A DNA stretch of 44,485 nt from Minisyncoccota bacterium (GTDB lineage Bacteria > Patescibacteriota > Minisyncoccia > Phycocordibacterales > UBA9973), in the NCBI GenBank assembly GCA_041667145.1, contig JBAYFP010000005.1, forward strand, positions 1 through 44,485, given 5' to 3'. The translations under genes were made by a program, and so were the position numbers. Of the stretch, positions 1 to 36,942 are shown piece after piece. The notes beneath the pieces were generated by a model, which was not told where the DNA came from, ran no database searches, and saw nothing but the letters and a program-made list of their open reading frames with translations. Position 1 is the first letter of the stretch; every line of letters begins with the position of its first letter.

Positions 1-367
1 GACTGCAGCCACCCGTAGGTGTATGGTCCGTGTCTCAGTACCATCGGTGGGGGTCAGGCTCTCACCTCCCCTAGACGTCATAGCCTTGGTAGTCCATTAC
101 ACTACCAACTAGCTGATATCGCACAGGCCTTTCCCAAAGCGAAAAATCTTTACTCTTGCGAGACCATCGTGTATTAGTCCGTCTTTCAACGAATTATTCA
201 CGACTTTGGGGGAAGTTCCTATGTATTACTACCTCGTTCGCCACTAACCTCAAACGACCTTTGACTTGATATAATCGCATCTCAGGAAAAATGAGGTCCG
301 TTCGACTTGCATGCCTTATCCACGCCGCCAGCGTTCATCCTGAGCTAGGATCAAACTCTAACTAAAA
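1..367 (-). rRNA. rrs: 16S rRNA, 5' ~365 nt (gene continues past the window start)
   Basis: Reverse complement of 325-359 reads AGAGTTTGATCCTAGCTCAGGATGAACGCTGGCGG and of 1-22 reads ACACCTACGGGTGGCTGCAGTC (conserved 5' and 341-357 blocks of 16S). The 5' boundary is approximate. Confidence 0.93.
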
Positions 368-4098: not shown

Positions 4099-5094
4099 TT
4101 ATTTTTCAACTATATTATATCTATCTAAAATAGCTTCAAACATGAGTGGAGCCACTATCGTAGCGTCAGATTCTATAACAAACATTGGAGTGTGTTTTGT
4201 GAGTTTATCCCAAGTTATCTTTTCATTTGGAGTAGCACCTGAATATGAACCATAAGAGGTTGTACTATCAGAAATCTGGCAGAAATATCCCCAAGGTCGA
4301 ACCTCTTTTTTCAAATCATATTTTATAGAAGGCACTACACAAATAGGAAAATCTCCAGAGATTCCTCCTCCAATTTGGAAAAATCCTAACCCAGGACCTG
4401 CTTTTGAGAGCTCTGTATATCTGTCATAAAGATACATCATGTATTCCACACCAGTCTTCATGACAGTCGGACTCACTTCTCCCGCTTTACAATATCCAGC
4501 AAAAATATTTCCTAAGGTAGAATCCTCCCAGCCTGGCACAACAATCGGCAAATTTTTCTTCGCAGCTTCAAGGAGCCAACAATGCTCTGGATTTCCTTCG
4601 TATTTACCTTTCAATTCATCTGATAATAAAATCTGGTAAAAATATTCATGAGGAAAATATCTCTCCCCTTTCGCTTGTGCATCTTTCCATCTTTTTAAAA
4701 TAATTGGTTCTACTACACGAAAAGCTTCTTCTTCTGGTATAGATGTATCCGTCACTCTTCTTTCCCCCCTATTTAAAATAGCCTCGTCATCTTCTTTTGT
4801 AAAATATCTATAATCTGGATAATCTTTATAGCTATTGTGTGCTACTAATCTAAAGACAGACTCTTCAAGATTTGCTCCTGTGCAAGAAACAGCATGTATT
4901 TTCCCTTCTTTGATCATGGGAGCGAGAGTGATACCCATCTGAGCGGAAGACATAGCTCCACCCATAGCAAGCAACATTTTACCACCGTCATCTAAGTGTT
5001 TTTTGAAAGCAAGAGTAGCATCTTTAAAAGCACGAGCATTAAAATTATGGAATAAATTTTGAAACAAAGCTAACATTGTAATTTCTTTTTTCAT
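4099..5094 (-). CDS. deoxyhypusine synthase-like (DS family) protein
   Basis: MLLAMGGAMSSAQMGITLAPMIKEGKIHAVSCTGANLEESVFRLV aligns by eye with the NAD-binding core of deoxyhypusine/homospermidine synthases; a later IGGGISGDFP motif is present. Confidence 0.65.
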   Translation of the reverse strand: MKKEITMLALFQNLFHNFNARAFKDATLAFKKHLDDGGKMLLAMGGAMSSAQMGITLAPMIKEGKIHAVSCTGANLEESVFRLVAHNSYKDYPDYRYFTKEDDEAILNRGERRVTDTSIPEEEAFRVVEPIILKRWKDAQAKGERYFPHEYFYQILLSDELKGKYEGNPEHCWLLEAAKKNLPIVVPGWEDSTLGNIFAGYCKAGEVSPTVMKTGVEYMMYLYDRYTELSKAGPGLGFFQIGGGISGDFPICVVPSIKYDLKKEVRPWGYFCQISDSTTSYGSYSGATPNEKITWDKLTKHTPMFVIESDATIVAPLMFEAILDRYNIVEK

Positions 5095-5452: not shown

Positions 5453-7204
5453 ATGCAAAAATTTTACATTCGTATACTTAATTTATTGCCGTCAAAAAAC
5501 GAAATAAAGAAAGCTATCTCTCATTTTTCAAAAAAAGAATATATGGTTTTTTTTAGCCTTGTTGTTATTTTTCTTATAAGCACACTAGCAATTCTTCAAA
5601 GTATTAATACATCTTTTATGACCTCTGTAGCCTTAAAAGGAGGGTCTATTTCTGAAGGTATAGTCGGTACTCCACGTTTTATAAATCCTATCATAGCAAC
5701 TTCCCAAGCTGATCAAGATATGGTAGCCCTTATCTATTCTGGGTTAATGAGAAAAAATACAGATGGCACCATTATTCCAGATCTAGCAGAAAAATATGAG
5801 ATGTCAAAAGATGGATTAATATACACTTTTACTTTAAAAGACAAAATCTATTTCCATGACAACAAACCTATAACCACCGATGATATAGTGTTTACTATAG
5901 AAAAAATAAAAGATCCAACGATGAAAAGTCCTAAAAAAGGAGGCTGGGATGGAGTCAGTGTAGAAAAAATTGATGATAAAACAATTAAATTTATATTAAA
6001 ACAACCCTATGCATCTTTTCTAGAAAATACAACATTAGGAATAATGCCTGCATATCTATGGAATACTTCCCCTATCGAACTCAATGATTCAAATACAAAC
6101 CCAATCGGTTCAGGACCATATAAAATAGCAAAAATAAGCAAACAATCTACAGGTCTAATAGATTATTATGATCTAGCTCCATTTAAAAAATTTAATCTCG
6201 GTGAACCATATATAACAAAAATGACATTACATTTTTATCAAAATGAAAACGCTTTAATATCAGCGTTAGAAAAAGGAGAAATAGATCAAATAAGTTCGAT
6301 TACTCCAGCAAATGCCCAAATATTAAAAGAAAAAAATTATCGAATAGAATCTCTGACACTCCCTCGAGTATTTGGACTCTTTTTTAATCAAAATCAAAAT
6401 CAAATTTTTACAGACAAAAACGTCATAAAAGCTATCGATTTAGCCGTTGACAAAGACAGTATTGTGCGTGATGTTTTGCTCGGATATGGTGTAGTCATCA
6501 ATGACCCGATACCACCCAACATGATAAATTACCAAAAACTAAATCAAGAAAACAATACATCTCAAGAAGAAAAAATTAAAAAAGCACAAGACATACTAAC
6601 AAAAGATGGTTGGAAAAAAGGCATAGACGGATTTCTAGAAAAAACTACTGTTGGTAAAAATAAGAAAAAAACTACCACATACATAGAATTTTCTATTTCA
6701 ACAAGTAATGCAGGAGAACTTGCCAAAACTGCTGAACTTATAAGAAAAAATCTAGAAAATATAGGAATGAAGGTCACTGTAAAAACTTTCGAGATAGGCA
6801 ACCTAAACCAAAGTGTCATACGCCCACGTCAATATGACGCTTTACTCTTTGGGCAAATTATCAATAACGAATCAGATCTATTTGCATTTTGGCATTCATC
6901 ACAACGTAAAGACCCCGGGCTCAATGTTGCGATGTATACCAATGCAAAAGTAGACAAAATATTAGAAGATGCCTCCATCACAATCGATGAAAAATCAAGG
7001 ATCAAAAAATATGCCCTGTTTGAGGATGAAATTAAAAAAGATATGCCTGCCATCTTTTTATATAGTCCTGATTTTATATATGTTGTCTCAAAAGACCTAA
7101 AAGGGTTTACTATGGATCATATCACCAATTCAGGAGACAGATTTCTAAATTCATATATGTGGTATACTAAAACAGATAATGTTTGGAAAATATTTTCCAA
7201 ATAA
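5453..7204 (+). CDS. family-5 (peptide/nickel type) ABC substrate-binding protein, N-terminally membrane anchored
   Basis: 583 aa with an N-terminal TM helix and SBP_bac_5-like sequence throughout (e.g. YTFTLKDKIYFHDNKPITTDD, PYKI). No permease or ATPase genes are adjacent. Confidence 0.7.
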   Translation: MQKFYIRILNLLPSKNEIKKAISHFSKKEYMVFFSLVVIFLISTLAILQSINTSFMTSVALKGGSISEGIVGTPRFINPIIATSQADQDMVALIYSGLMRKNTDGTIIPDLAEKYEMSKDGLIYTFTLKDKIYFHDNKPITTDDIVFTIEKIKDPTMKSPKKGGWDGVSVEKIDDKTIKFILKQPYASFLENTTLGIMPAYLWNTSPIELNDSNTNPIGSGPYKIAKISKQSTGLIDYYDLAPFKKFNLGEPYITKMTLHFYQNENALISALEKGEIDQISSITPANAQILKEKNYRIESLTLPRVFGLFFNQNQNQIFTDKNVIKAIDLAVDKDSIVRDVLLGYGVVINDPIPPNMINYQKLNQENNTSQEEKIKKAQDILTKDGWKKGIDGFLEKTTVGKNKKKTTTYIEFSISTSNAGELAKTAELIRKNLENIGMKVTVKTFEIGNLNQSVIRPRQYDALLFGQIINNESDLFAFWHSSQRKDPGLNVAMYTNAKVDKILEDASITIDEKSRIKKYALFEDEIKKDMPAIFLYSPDFIYVVSKDLKGFTMDHITNSGDRFLNSYMWYTKTDNVWKIFSK

Positions 7205-7238: not shown

Positions 7239-9188
7239 ATGAGAAAAACTAGACTGCCTTTTAGCGCTTTAAGTATCGATGAGAAAAAACCTACCAAAAT
7301 AGACGTCCCACGTCTTAATACAAGGGCTCCAGACGTTGGACGTCTGGGAACCAGACGTCCAACGTCTGGAGAAAATAAGAAAAAAAATACAAAAAACTCT
7401 ACTTATCAATATTCCAAGAAAAACTATGGCCAATCCAGAAACAACAATCGTGGCTTTGGAAACAAAAATGGATACAAAAATATAATTGAAAATAAAATCC
7501 CACCACCCGGAGAAGGAGTAATCCGTATCATTCCACTCGGAGGAGTAGAAGAAATAGGGAAAAATATGACAGCGATAGAAATAGATAATGACATAGTCAT
7601 TGTAGATGCAGGTATGCATTTTTCGAACGAAGACACTCCAGGAGTAGATTATGTCATTCCCAACACGACGTATCTTGAAGAACATAAAGATAAAATACGA
7701 GGCTTATTTATAACTCATGGACACTTAGATCATATAGGAGGAGTACCAATAGTTCTTTCACGTATAGGTAATCCTCCTGTATACTCTCGTCAGCTTTCTA
7801 TACTTATGATGAGAAAACGACAAGCCGAATTCCCTCAACTACCTGCCATGAAAGAAAATATCGTTGAAAAAGATGGATCAGTCACTTGTGGAAAAATTAA
7901 AGTGAGATTTTTTGGTGTCACTCATACCATACCTGATTCATTAGGAGTAATCATAGAAACAAAAAACGGATTGATAGTGACCCCAGGAGACTACAAGTTA
8001 GATCAAGTAGACGGAGTAGTATCCAAAGAGGAAGAAAAAGAATATTCGATTTTTGACAAGGCAAAAGTGTTGCTCTTGATGACTGACTCCACAAACATAG
8101 AAAACGAAGGATTTTCCTTACCTGAAATAAAAGTACATCAGGGACTCGAAAATTTAATAAAAAGAATAAATGGAAGAATAATAATCGCTGCTTTCGCTTC
8201 TCATATCACTCGCCTCACTCATATAGTCAAAGTCGCTGAATCTTTAGGAAAAAAAATCGCTATCGATGGACGTTCAATGAAAACAAACATTGATGTCGCC
8301 ATAGAAGCCGGATATTTTAAACCAAAAAAAGATACAATCATACCTATTGAAGAAGCAAACAATTATCCACCAAATAAAGTAGTCATACTCATGACCGGCT
8401 CACAAGGAGAAGAATTTGCAGCCCTCTCAAGAGCCGCTAATAAATCTCATACAAAATTTTCAATCAAAAAAGGAGATACTATCATTCTCTCTTCTTCTAT
8501 CGTACCTGGAAACGAAATAAAAGTTCAACGTATAAAAGACAATCTATCACGTCAAGGAGTAAAAATAATAAGCTATCGTACTACTGGAGAAGATTTCGTT
8601 CATGCTACAGGACATGGAAACAAGGAAGATATAAGATGGCTCCATATAAAAACTCATCCTAAATTCTTTATTCCAATTCACGGCAACCATTACATGTTAG
8701 AACTCCACAAAGAACTCGCCCTCGAAATCGGTATGTCAGAAGAAAATATTATTATTCCAGACAACGGATCTATTATAGAAATTTCTGCTGATGGACAAAA
8801 AATGACATTACGAAAAGAAAAAGCCCCCTCAGCCCCTATGATGGTAGATGGACTCGCAATAAGTGATGTACAAGACGTCGTCATAAGAGATCGTGTCATG
8901 CTTGCCCAAGACGGAATGTTTGTCATTATAGCTCTCGTCGATCAGAAAACTGGAAAATTAAAAAAATCTCCTGACTTAATATCACGCGGATTTGTTTATC
9001 TAAAAGAAAACCAAGAACTTCTACGTCAGGTAAGAATCATCATAAAAAAAGGAGTAGAAGATGGAAATGTGAGAATGCCTATAGATCTCGATCAGATAAA
9101 AGCTAACCTTGGTGAGACAGTTTCAAAATTCCTATATCAAAAAACAGCAAAAAGACCATTAGTCATTCCTGTAGTTTTAAGTATCTAA
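7239..9188 (+). CDS. rnj: ribonuclease J with an ~85-aa basic low-complexity N-terminal extension
   Basis: IRIIPLGGVEEIGKNMTAIE, the HGHLDHIGG metallo-beta-lactamase motif, beta-CASP and a C-terminal domain. The only in-frame ATG upstream of the conserved core is at 7239. Confidence 0.9.
   Translation: MRKTRLPFSALSIDEKKPTKIDVPRLNTRAPDVGRLGTRRPTSGENKKKNTKNSTYQYSKKNYGQSRNNNRGFGNKNGYKNIIENKIPPPGEGVIRIIPLGGVEEIGKNMTAIEIDNDIVIVDAGMHFSNEDTPGVDYVIPNTTYLEEHKDKIRGLFITHGHLDHIGGVPIVLSRIGNPPVYSRQLSILMMRKRQAEFPQLPAMKENIVEKDGSVTCGKIKVRFFGVTHTIPDSLGVIIETKNGLIVTPGDYKLDQVDGVVSKEEEKEYSIFDKAKVLLLMTDSTNIENEGFSLPEIKVHQGLENLIKRINGRIIIAAFASHITRLTHIVKVAESLGKKIAIDGRSMKTNIDVAIEAGYFKPKKDTIIPIEEANNYPPNKVVILMTGSQGEEFAALSRAANKSHTKFSIKKGDTIILSSSIVPGNEIKVQRIKDNLSRQGVKIISYRTTGEDFVHATGHGNKEDIRWLHIKTHPKFFIPIHGNHYMLELHKELALEIGMSEENIIIPDNGSIIEISADGQKMTLRKEKAPSAPMMVDGLAISDVQDVVIRDRVMLAQDGMFVIIALVDQKTGKLKKSPDLISRGFVYLKENQELLRQVRIIIKKGVEDGNVRMPIDLDQIKANLGETVSKFLYQKTAKRPLVIPVVLSI
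7327..7371. repeat. 45-bp GC-rich palindrome embedded in frame in rnj
   Basis: CTCCAGACGTTGGACGTCTGG-GAA-CCAGACGTCCAACGTCTGGAG (21-bp arms, 3-nt loop). The 21-mer CAGACGTTGGACGTCTGGGAA is identical to 15740-15760. Confidence 0.9.
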
Positions 9189-16306: not shown

Positions 16307-16385
16307 CCCGTTAGAAATTTATATTAATTAATAATACCAAACTTTCATATCCCGTTTTCAATATTTACGTTATTTCTAACGGGAT
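16307..16385. repeat. 78-bp inverted-repeat-bounded cassette, copy 1 (portable promoter or MITE-like)
   Basis: CCCGTTAGAAAT...ATTTCTAACCGGG. About 96% identical to 16701-16777 (two substitutions plus a 1-nt indel). The minus strand contains TGGTATTAT (an extended -10) about 25 nt before the ATG. Confidence 0.8.
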
Positions 16386-16403
16386 CCATATTTATATTGT
16401 ATC

Positions 16404-16482
16404 ACCCTGTAGTAGATTTTGGAAAGGCTTTAAGCGCTCAGATAAAATCTGAGCATTTTCAAAACTCACTACGGGGTATCAC
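16404..16482. repeat. palindromic element, long form, copy C (inverted relative to copy A)
   Basis: CACCCTGTAGTAGATTTTGGAAA ... inner perfect hairpin GCTCAGAT-AAA-ATCTGAGC ... TTTTCAAAACTCACTACGGGGTATCAC. It abuts the TGA stop of the DUF167 gene. Confidence 0.7.
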
Positions 16483-16700
16483 AGATCTACTACTAAAAGT
16501 TTAGTTGGGCTACGGTGCCCATTTACAATACGTACTTTCCTTTTTGGTGCTTTAAAATATTCAGAAAAAATCTCAATAATTTTATCATTCGCCAAATTCC
16601 GCTCCGCTTTTTCTTTAACAGAAACCTCAAAATGATCCTCATTTATTTTCTTAAAGATTTCTTTCTTGGCCGAGGGAGAAACTTTGACTCTTATATACAT
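16479..16700 (-). CDS. DUF167 (YggU/UPF0235) family protein
   Basis: 73 aa; V(K/R)V.P.AK......-type N-terminus and a G..S..K...V C-terminus typical of YggU-like proteins. Confidence 0.65.
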   Translation of the reverse strand: MYIRVKVSPSAKKEIFKKINEDHFEVSVKEKAERNLANDKIIEIFSEYFKAPKRKVRIVNGHRSPTKLLVVDL

Positions 16701-16777
16701 CCCGTTAGAAATTTATATTAATTAATAATACCAAATCTTCATATCCCGTTTTCAATATTTACGTTATTTCTAACGGG
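16701..16777. repeat. 78-bp inverted-repeat-bounded cassette, copy 2
   Basis: Starts immediately after (upstream of) the ATG of the DUF167 gene. The terminal inverted repeat is CCCGTTAGAAAT / ATTTCTAACGGG. Confidence 0.8.
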
Positions 16778-16786
16778 ATACATAAA

Positions 16787-17344
16787 TTACAAATCTATAC
16801 TATTTCTTTTCCCATAAAAATACACAACCAGTACAAGTACGATGAGAACAAGAAAACTAGTCAAGGAAAGCATTGGAATAGAAATGTATCCACCAAACTC
16901 TGATACTAAATGTTTATAACAAGAGATACCTGAAGCATCACAAGGAACATTACTACTCTCACCAAAATAATAAACAAGATTCTGATAAATAGAAATAATA
17001 AATCCAACAAACAAAAGTGGCAAGGTGTATTTCATTATCTTTTTATTTTTTTCCCAAAGGGCGGCACCAAAAATAAATACCTGTGGGAATAGAAATACTC
17101 TTTGAAACCAACAAAGCTCGCATGGAGGAAAGTGTATTGTTTCAGAATAAACTAAAGAAAATAAAGTAGCAAAAAAAGAAATTAAAAAACCAATAACTAA
17201 AAAATGCTTTTCAATAAAATCTAAAAAAATGTTCTTCCTGTGTCCCCCAAAAAATACAAATAAAATCAACACAGAAAAAATCTGCAGGGCTATTGCCCCC
17301 AACCCTAATACAACATTAAGATAATGTAAGGTATCTATACTCAT
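16787..17344 (-). CDS. DsbB/BdbC-family disulfide bond formation protein
   Basis: Multi-TM protein with PPCELCWFQRVFLFPQ (CxxC in the first periplasmic loop) and a second Cys pair (CDASGISC). Confidence 0.75.
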   Translation of the reverse strand: MSIDTLHYLNVVLGLGAIALQIFSVLILFVFFGGHRKNIFLDFIEKHFLVIGFLISFFATLFSLVYSETIHFPPCELCWFQRVFLFPQVFIFGAALWEKNKKIMKYTLPLLFVGFIISIYQNLVYYFGESSNVPCDASGISCYKHLVSEFGGYISIPMLSLTSFLVLIVLVLVVYFYGKRNSIDL

Positions 17345-35227: not shown

Positions 35228-35231
35228 TTAT

Positions 35232-35270
35232 ACCCTGTAGTGAAACTTTTTCAAAGTTCTACTACGGGGT
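35232..35270. repeat. palindromic element, short form, copy D (between the ftsE stop and the ftsX start)
   Basis: ACCCTGTAGTGAAACTTTTTCAAAGTTCTACTACGGGGT. Confidence 0.7.
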
Positions 35271-36857: not shown

Positions 36858-36942
36858 TAAATTCTTGTAAAATGTTCTTTTTCAAATGGTCTGGGCCTCT
36901 GGGTCGAGGACCTGAGAAAAAAAAATATTTTACAAGAATTTA
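36858..36942. repeat. 16-bp AT-rich inverted repeat clamping a GC-rich core upstream of prfB
   Basis: TAAATTCTTGTAAAAT (36858-36873) pairs with ATTTTACAAGAATTTA (36927-36942). The core contains GGTCTGGGCCTCTGGGTCGAGGACC. Confidence 0.75.

Follow-up and report, generated by a model that had tools for sequence, protein, structure and literature searches.

GC-rich palindromes that lie both between and inside the genes of AT-rich genomes are known from fungal mitochondria, as mobile GC clusters and double-hairpin elements; they differ from the element described here in being organellar, in having different sequences, and in that some are bypassed or removed rather than translated. Two bacterial systems are closer. 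In the repetitive extragenic palindromic (REP) sequences of Enterobacteria and Pseudomonas, a REP doublet consists of two inverted short palindromes and a spacer that together form a long hairpin, which is the definition of a REPIN (PMC3337134, PMC3116915). The Rickettsia palindromic elements (RPEs) are, in the passages that PMC10969869 devotes to them, citing Ogata et al., ~100–150 bp long, add 30–50 residues, and survive in frame inside genes, where they are tolerated by the host protein. Here we analyze a 44,485-nucleotide stretch of DNA from a Minisyncoccota bacterium (assembly GCA_041667145.1, contig JBAYFP010000005.1; "the window", meaning the whole stretch), which contains two long GC-rich palindromes: palindrome A, inside rnj, the gene for RNase J, and palindrome B, between genes. 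Palindromes A and B belong to a single GC-rich palindromic repeat family with dispersed copies, and we put the probability that this family behaves as non-autonomous selfish DNA of the REP/REPIN or RPE kind at roughly 0.7. Elements of this kind are already known; the family itself is apparently undescribed, and a full-text literature search, which covered the core sequence, palindromic elements of Patescibacteria, and any link of REPIN/RAYT or RPE with the Candidate Phyla Radiation (CPR), found no description of it. The features on which the analysis centers are the following.

7327 to 7371, no strand: palindrome A, a full doublet copy with 21-bp arms and a GAA loop (from sequence, covariance model, and DNA fold)
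7301 to 7315, no strand: solo half unit AGACGT-CCC-ACGTCT, a mini-palindrome (from sequence; weak covariance-model match, E=2; fold z=-5.6)
7239 to 9188, plus strand: host gene rnj, RNase J, 649 aa (Pfam PF22505, PF17770, PF00753)
15738 to 15792, no strand: palindrome B, a full doublet copy with 22-bp arms and an 11-nt loop, intergenic (from sequence, covariance model, fold, and gene context)

Palindrome A has arms CTCCAGACGTTGGACGTCTGG (7327–7347) and CCAGACGTCCAACGTCTGGAG (7351–7371), which by direct reading pair perfectly (21/21) around the loop GAA (7348–7350). It scores 66.5 bits against the covariance model of the family (E=2e-17), folds as single-stranded DNA with −27.4 kcal/mol (z=-10.9), and has a GC content of 59% vs. 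29–39% for the window. The rnj reading frame runs through it as ...IDVPRLNTRAPDVGRLGTRRPTSGE..., such that palindrome A encodes residues A30–E45 (APDVGRLGTRRPTSGE) of open reading frame (ORF) 7239–9188. Palindrome B, with arms at 15738–15759 and 15771–15792 and loop ATGTGGATAAC at 15760–15770, scores 58 bits (E=6e-15) and folds with −27.2 kcal/mol (z=-11.2), and a 21-mer, CAGACGTTGGACGTCTGGGAA, is common to A (7330–7350) and B (15740–15760). The initial annotation, made from the letters of the window, had described a 45-bp palindrome translated in frame within rnj, and that description proves correct. It had also listed three AGACGT-NNN-ACGTCT units and a recurrence at 15739–15791; the three units are present, with the first at 7301–7315 rather than 7304–7318, and the recurrence is present with its 11-nt loop and DnaA box, with arms of 22 nt and an extent of 15738–15792. 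In the window, an 18-mer of the palindrome has 6 matches with at most 3 mismatches vs. 0.00 in shuffled sequences, and the 6-3-6 unit has 5 matches vs. 0.04; neither result is expected by chance. An unfiltered covariance-model run over the 44 kb returned A and B as the only full copies, together with a weak match at 7294–7322 that covers the solo half unit, which is translated as (I)DVPRL. An Rfam scan of the window gave no match to the palindromes, with gathering scores only for a 16S fragment and three tRNAs.

To define the distribution of the family, we scanned one genome per species, for 185,579 species genomes, with the pattern GACGTTGGACGT-N(0–30)-ACGTCCAACGTC. The scan identified 87 stretches, vs. 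~0.13 expected by chance at uniform composition, and ~75 of the 87 lie in ~30 low-GC CPR metagenome-assembled genomes (MAGs) from independent studies, with 14 perfect copies in CAZKWN01, 13 in JARLIG01, 9 in CAWHSF01, 4 in DATDVS01, and 1–3 in the others. The covariance model adds ~18 diverged or variant copies within the same loci (L-numbers below denote the loci compared). The search for further copies in related genomes, which the initial annotation had proposed, thus revealed a multi-copy family with members inside and outside genes. In 1.05 Mb of rnj-centered loci from diverse CPR, by contrast, copies occur only in the rnj genes of close relatives, and the distribution of the family is therefore patchy. 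Along one 430-kb contig (CAWHSF010000003.1) it is also clustered, with all perfect copies at 96–200 kb. On that contig, L169 838–5927 (at 96–104 kb) carries six copies in 8 kb, between small genes; several of these adjoin canonical terminators, which lie beside the copies and not within them. In the source groundwater metagenome, sequencing depth is 128–265 over the palindrome vs. ~17–20 beside it, and several contigs carry the palindrome with unrelated flanks, which together indicate that many more copies are present in the groundwater community; groundwater reads and contigs also include loop variants of the palindrome from other loci.

The family appears to be confined to a clade of ultra-small bacteria, Nomurabacteria-like Paceibacteria within the CPR. 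The window itself comes from such a Paceibacterium, and its closest RNase J relatives are named Candidatus Nomurabacteria or Paceibacterota. Some host MAGs (L086–L166, including CAZKWN01, CAYHGI01, CAYHBT01, and others) are labeled 'Candidatus Saccharibacteria'; their AtpD, GuaA, and TopA are 84–93% identical to those of MAGs labeled Paceibacterota or Nomurabacteria, such that the family is apparently limited to one fairly narrow clade, and the Saccharibacteria labels, judged from these protein sequences, are probably wrong. We set aside 12 stretches from high-GC genomes of other phyla, which are long hairpins built of tandem GACGTTG-like heptamers.

L099, L121, L124, L129, L146 (Planctomycetia MAG): heptamer hairpins
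L133, L167 (Verrucomicrobiota): heptamer hairpins
L142, L163 (Gemmatimonadota): heptamer hairpins
L089, L116, L161 (Bacteroidota): heptamer hairpins

These hairpins are GC-rich, have arms of tandem GACGTTG / GTTNGAC with up to ~6 units per arm, and occur several to a genome. The CPR element also contains their GACGTTGGACGT word, but they seem to form a repeat class of their own.

In a full copy of the CPR element, a variable loop is flanked by CAGACGT-TGG-ACGTCTG on one side and CAGACGT-CCA-ACGTCTG on the other; these two mini-palindromes are inverted relative to each other and together form a 17–22-bp hairpin. The match from core to core is 26–53 nt long, mostly 35 or 38; the element as a whole is 35–60 bp, adds 12–19 residues when translated, and is free of stop codons in all frames. 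Half units also stand alone, each with flanking stems of its own, at L100 1453, L170 7878, L169 4168, and window 7294–7322, and, because each arm is a mini-palindrome and solo halves exist, a full copy is two inverted singlets joined into a doublet. We aligned 78 copies; owing to the way they were ascertained, the 13 core nucleotides of each arm are invariant, and outside the core the stem varies but covaries: at pair 8:56, 45 copies have AU and 27 have GC, pair 6:58 takes four Watson-Crick types (CG in 27, UA in 18, AU in 11, GC in 5), and 92.5% of cells are paired, vs. 30–42% after sliding the partner columns. The family comprises subfamilies, including a TCGG/CCGA type and a GACGTTGGACACCTGC...GCAGGTGTCCAACGTC type, and one genome carries at two loci (L120 7164–7246 and L122 1747–1828) the same composite, apparently nested copy, which is hard to account for without copying of the unit.

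Two further accounts of the palindrome have to be set against this anatomy. According to the first, a dimeric DNA-binding protein, possibly together with DnaA at an adjacent box, uses the 15-bp dyads AGACGT-N3-ACGTCT as operators, and the palindrome is two such operators side by side. Each arm is indeed a 6-3-6 dyad, and dyads do occur alone; moreover the word GTGGATAAC (one mismatch allowed) stands beside 12/81 copies vs. ~0.8 expected, always oriented towards the palindrome and usually 6 nt from the core, with two such words at site B, where a promoter-like site follows the box. Two independent operators, however, would need neither complementary center triplets (TGG/CCA) nor covarying flanks and inner stems; the center-to-center spacing of the dyads, taken from the 26–53-nt core matches, varies by tens of nucleotides, so that helical phasing is lost; over half of the copies lie deep in the coding sequences of unrelated genes; and the window has only 3 perfect DnaA boxes, no dnaA gene, and no GC-skew switch. 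We regard the operator account as improbable. According to the second, which the initial annotation had offered as its alternative, the palindrome is a recognition site (GACGTC) for restriction-modification or for a nuclease, or else an artefact of assembly. Palindrome A, like each copy of the family, does contain two GACGTC and four ACGT sites; but a Pfam scan of ~50 window ORFs, including all but one of the 43 ORFs of at least 100 aa, found no restriction-modification gene, a 6-bp site cannot account for arms of 17–22 bp with covarying flanks (21 bp in palindrome A), and, as regards an artefact, copies are found in many independent assemblies from different studies, in which long reading frames stay open across them. 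This account is scarcely credible.

An integron attC site was considered and rejected: GTTGGAC/GTCCAAC are present but in the opposite order (GTTRRRY first), copies lie in housekeeping genes, and the window has no integrase.

The copies occupy two kinds of place: inside genes and just after genes. Inside genes, 49/83 perfect-core copies lie within open frames of at least 250 aa. For ten hosts (GuaA, GatB, PurH, AtpD, AtpG, a class-V aminotransferase, TopA, PyrF, DnaG, and MurE), Pfam confirms the identity with a domain match that runs across the insertion; their products include GMP synthase, ATP synthase beta and gamma, topoisomerase I, OMP decarboxylase, primase DnaG, and a Mur ligase. The position of the insertion differs between copies in the same protein, in GuaA between L112 and L087/L140, and in TopA between residue 204 in L110 and residue 422 in L094/L150, which implies that insertion happened more than once; the TopA insert amounts to 12 extra residues relative to the L110 orthologue, which is empty at that position. 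The translated peptide is mostly DVGR...(R/G)RPTS. In the 49 in-gene copies, arm 1 is read as DVGR in 38, xTLDV in 9, and xRWTS in 2; arm 2 is read as RPTS in 37; and the frame DVGR...RPTS holds in 32, statistics that are inflated by orthologous copies, although the bias is present across many independent hosts.

The dominance of the DVGR...RPTS frame raises the question whether the peptide motif DVGR..RRPTS is under selection in the proteins themselves, RNase J among them, the DNA palindrome being incidental. One rnj orthologue, L178, does keep the peptide (DAGRQDSRRPTS) through mostly synonymous changes while losing the pairing. But intergenic copies exist, other frames are used in 11/49 in-gene copies, paired changes of V to I and T to M in another orthologue preserve pairing and not the peptide, the hosts are unrelated, and the rnj segment is predicted to be disordered. 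We consider selection for a peptide very unlikely.

After genes, there are 30 intergenic copies, of which the 26 with a called gene on either side fall between tandem genes in 20 cases, convergent genes in 5, and divergent genes in 1. The majority start 3–23 nt past a stop codon. Among copies with the box, 7/8 informative cases show, along the transcribed strand, first the stop codon, then the palindrome, and then GTTATCCAC. Palindrome B is of this type, and its surroundings are the following.

15761 to 15769, plus strand: DnaA-box-like TGTGGATAA in the loop of palindrome B (box scan)
15715 to 15723, plus strand: second TGTGGATAA(CTC), 14 nt from the foot of palindrome B (box scan)
15809 to 16063, minus strand: small conserved gene, 84 aa, without a Pfam match, 67% identical to a homologue in L006; palindrome B lies after its 3' end
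15679 to 15707, minus strand: promoter-like TTTATA-17-TATAAT, just downstream of the TGTGGATAA box on the minus strand (consensus match, context only)

Palindrome B follows the stop codon of ORF 15809–16063 (minus strand) at a distance of 16 nt; read along the transcribed (minus) strand, the stop codon comes first, then the palindrome, then GTTATCCACA. The syntenic relatives L003 and L173 do not have the stretch that contains site B, and a related genome in the same sample has a joint that skips 15287–16870 and thus has no site B stretch; the absence of this stretch from syntenic relatives, noted also with regard to the initial annotation's proposal, fits a mobile element. On the minus strand, ~340 nt (window 15318–15707) are bracketed by the promoter-like site at 15707–15679 and a terminator-like hairpin with a T-run at 15338–15318, and hold only an unsupported 80-aa ORF with a TTG start (15412–15654, no Pfam match); a small transcript may arise there, downstream of palindrome B. 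Two identities were considered for the palindromes and rejected. An intrinsic terminator is contradicted by the finding of no T-run after A or B on either strand, and a terminator scan of 15250–16120 does not call B. An origin of replication or cluster of DnaA boxes is contradicted by the count of perfect boxes given above and by 17 matches with at most one mismatch vs. 14 expected, by a cumulative GC skew that falls steadily overall with no sustained reversal, and by the finding of no dnaA among the scanned window ORFs.

Residues 1–84 of the window's RNase J form a lineage-specific N-terminal extension that carries both palindrome A and the solo half unit, and an extension of ~85–90 residues is present in every RNase J orthologue at 76–86% identity. 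Its ends, M(K/R)K(T/N)RL(S/P)FS and KSSTYQYSKKNYGQ, are conserved; its middle is hypervariable; and palindrome A is in the middle. Alignment thus places residues ~30–45 in the hypervariable part of the extension, with the motif present, decayed, or absent in orthologues. AlphaFold2, run with 86 aligned orthologues, gives a pLDDT of 28–34 over residues 1–84 and almost no secondary structure, from which the peptide encoded by the palindrome is predicted to lie in a disordered tail. Where the AGACGT palindrome is missing from rnj orthologues, this hypervariable spot holds in some of them a different short GC-rich hairpin, such as ATTCTCC-GGCCA-GTGGAGAAT or GGGCC-GTA-GGCCC, and palindromes in general may tend to land in the rnj tail.

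L006 ~10080–10105: other hairpin in the rnj N-terminal extension
L007 ~4665–4685: other hairpin in the rnj N-terminal extension
L003 ~6650–6675: other hairpin in the rnj N-terminal extension

Of the 86 RNase J orthologues on a neighbor-joining tree, 15 have the full motif, 9 a partial one, and 62 none, and the pattern extends over several separate clades. We compared the DNA of 12 orthologues that were picked by protein and not by DNA pattern. The stems are intact (at least 13 bp) in seven (window, L003, L173, L174, L176, L177, and L179) and decayed in five (L175, L001, L178, L180, and L172). In L173, a DIPRL equivalent to the translated half unit of the window stands ahead of the full copy.

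We interpret the palindromes as copies of a selfish element because the family has a multi-copy, patchy distribution, genome-specific subfamilies, singlets as well as doublets, a duplicated composite, differing sites in the same protein, and copies 3' of genes. It is from this structure of the family, read from sequence, that we infer mobility. Copies would have been multiplied and homogenized within genomes, most likely through a single-stranded hairpin worked on by an enzyme supplied in trans. In gene-dense genomes, copies would persist only at places of low harm: that is, a few nucleotides past a stop codon, or in frame in tolerant loops and disordered tails, where a stop-free, GC-rich unit could survive in the genes of an AT-rich genome. 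The rnj copy would accordingly be an in-frame insertion in a disordered extension, inherited within a clade of orthologues and decaying in some of its members, and palindrome B would be a 3'-of-gene copy in a lineage-specific intergenic stretch. The initial annotation had proposed a mobile palindromic element domesticated into an ORF, as in Rickettsia, to be checked by a copy search, an RNase J alignment, and a search for restriction-modification genes; each of these checks agrees with a mobile element, mobility again being read from family structure, and "domesticated", in the sense of a gained function, would go further than these results.

Two sets of results weigh against this interpretation. 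The first concerns the traces that mobilization might leave. No transposase, RAYT (REP-associated tyrosine transposase), or other mobilizing candidate was found among the Pfam-scanned window ORFs; a phmmer search with E. coli RayT (single query, E up to 10) found no homologue in 9,170 ORFs from 1.78 Mb of loci, which include ~8 kb around every copy; neither a target-site duplication nor an empty site resolved to the nucleotide was seen in reads; and no joint that cleanly removes A or B was found in the two groundwater runs that hold the window, in Logan contigs, which drop rare variants. A pattern scan of viral contigs gave 0 copies, and hence no sign of a phage vehicle. As for miniature inverted-repeat transposable elements, the whole of the CPR element is an inverted repeat, such that a target-site duplication is indistinguishable from an extension of the stem, and no parent insertion sequence or transposase was seen in the window or the loci.

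The second set concerns conservation. In L174, a change of GTT/ACG to ATT/ATG in the two arms replaces V with I and T with M and keeps pairing, and in L173 and L179 a change of TTGG/CCAA to TCGG/CCGA is likewise compensated. In the DVGR/RPTS frame, the third codon positions of the two arms pair with each other. Where two orthologues encode the same amino acid, they use the same codon in 72% of pairwise comparisons within the rnj palindrome vs. 54% in control codons, and in 82.5% vs. 54.5% when the comparison is limited to the 7 intact copies (11 orthologues, L172 being too decayed to align; 63 control codons of the same gene; pairs non-independent, and the values therefore indicative only). 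In ten other hosts, orthologues with flanks only 66–82% identical carry the copy at an unchanged site; their cores are identical, and their inner and outer stems differ yet still pair. Such same-site retention, synonymous conservation, and compensated change exceed what is expected of neutral junk, and require gene conversion, template-switch correction of quasi-palindromes, or selection on the hairpin. Template-switch correction of quasi-palindromes is a known mutational route.

Selection on the hairpin would make the palindrome a nucleic-acid signal rather than selfish DNA: an RNA 3'-end stabilizer or terminator, a processing or pausing site related to RNase III or RNase J, or a DNA hairpin or cruciform with a DnaA-box-like tail. 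The hairpin would then be a selected signal that stands directly after stop codons and within the coding sequence of essential genes (such as those for ATP synthase, primase, topoisomerase I, and RNase J), serving as a mark for RNA processing or stability or in a role linked to replication or DnaA, with its core held constant at synonymous sites while the surrounding proteins diverge. The conservation of same-amino-acid codons in rnj, the compensated arm changes, including the non-synonymous pair in L174, and the same-site copies with an identical core are what such a signal would produce, as are the placement of most intergenic copies 3–23 nt past a stop codon, the avoidance of divergent promoter regions, and the order of stop codon, palindrome, and GTTATCCAC in 7/8 informative cases. 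Against it stand the loss of pairing in 5/12 rnj orthologues, among them L178, which retains its peptide with no hairpin, and the absence of the element from most related CPR genomes, which together argue against an essential role. There is also no U-tract after the hairpin and no Rfam match, and the within-genome duplication of the composite and the genome-specific subfamilies resemble the replication of a parasite. In the decayed rnj copies, sense-strand mismatches are G-U in 5 cases vs. A-C in 9, that is, with no enrichment of G-U, in a hand count too small to inform. Overall we consider a selected signal possible but rather unlikely.

The nearest counterparts of the family are the two bacterial systems introduced above. 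Like REP/REPIN–RAYT systems, the CPR element comprises short GC-rich palindromes in many dispersed copies per genome, forms doublets of inverted short palindromes with a long hairpin as well as solo singlets, lies, when extragenic, at the 3' ends of genes while avoiding divergent promoters, and has genome-specific sequence populations. It differs in that over half of its copies are inside coding sequence and translated, whereas REPs are extragenic; in having no 5' GTAG, variable and complementary flanks instead, and a GTGGATAAC tail in one subfamily; in having no RAYT near any copy in the DNA searched; in numbering tens of copies or fewer, not hundreds; and in its CPR host. Like RPEs, as far as the passages in PMC10969869 describe them (the comparison is by description), the CPR element is a palindromic repeat in a reduced, AT-rich, gene-dense genome, is in frame in many unrelated housekeeping genes, is translated as a conserved extra peptide with one frame preferred, and has insertion sites that fit the fold of the host protein. 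By the same description, it is 3–4 times smaller than an RPE (35–60 bp and 12–19 residues), is a near-perfect hairpin with the architecture of a REP doublet, has many copies immediately 3' of genes, and belongs to an unrelated lineage. What appears to be new is the combination: a doublet hairpin that is very short and near-perfect, copies that are mostly intragenic and translated, a DnaA-box-like tail in some of them, and a CPR host.

The window contains other repeats, unrelated in sequence to the AGACGT palindrome in the case of a second intergenic hairpin family, which has conserved stems, ACCCYGTAGTRR...YYACTACRGGGT, and four or five copies, with loops that vary and are sometimes nested.

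773 to 858: second hairpin family
11719 to 11753: second hairpin family
16405 to 16477: second hairpin family
35231 to 35268: second hairpin family

A 90-nt direct repeat, 96% identical between 16301–16390 and 16695–16784, flanks a DUF167 gene (16479–16700), and each repeat copy pairs CCCGTTAGAAAT with ATTTCTAACGGG across ~55 nt. Long AT-rich inverted repeats with 25-nt arms that are 92% complementary and with GC-rich centers lie at 14613–14694, between convergent genes, and at 36858–36942, between genes on the same strand; both probably act as terminators, the one in the convergent spacer in both directions. A 16S rRNA gene runs off the start of the window, which includes its 5' part (window 1–366, minus strand; Rfam, 268 bits).

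CPR/Patescibacteria genomes are regarded as streamlined and repeat-poor. The family described here offers a ready marker for strain typing, and the synonymous conservation of its core makes the choice between selfish DNA and a functional hairpin directly testable. If our interpretation is correct, a hairpin family that writes 12–19 extra residues into the conserved domains of core enzymes would show the phenomenon known from RPEs a second time and independently, and the family would also be a source of lineage-specific protein insertions in these organisms.

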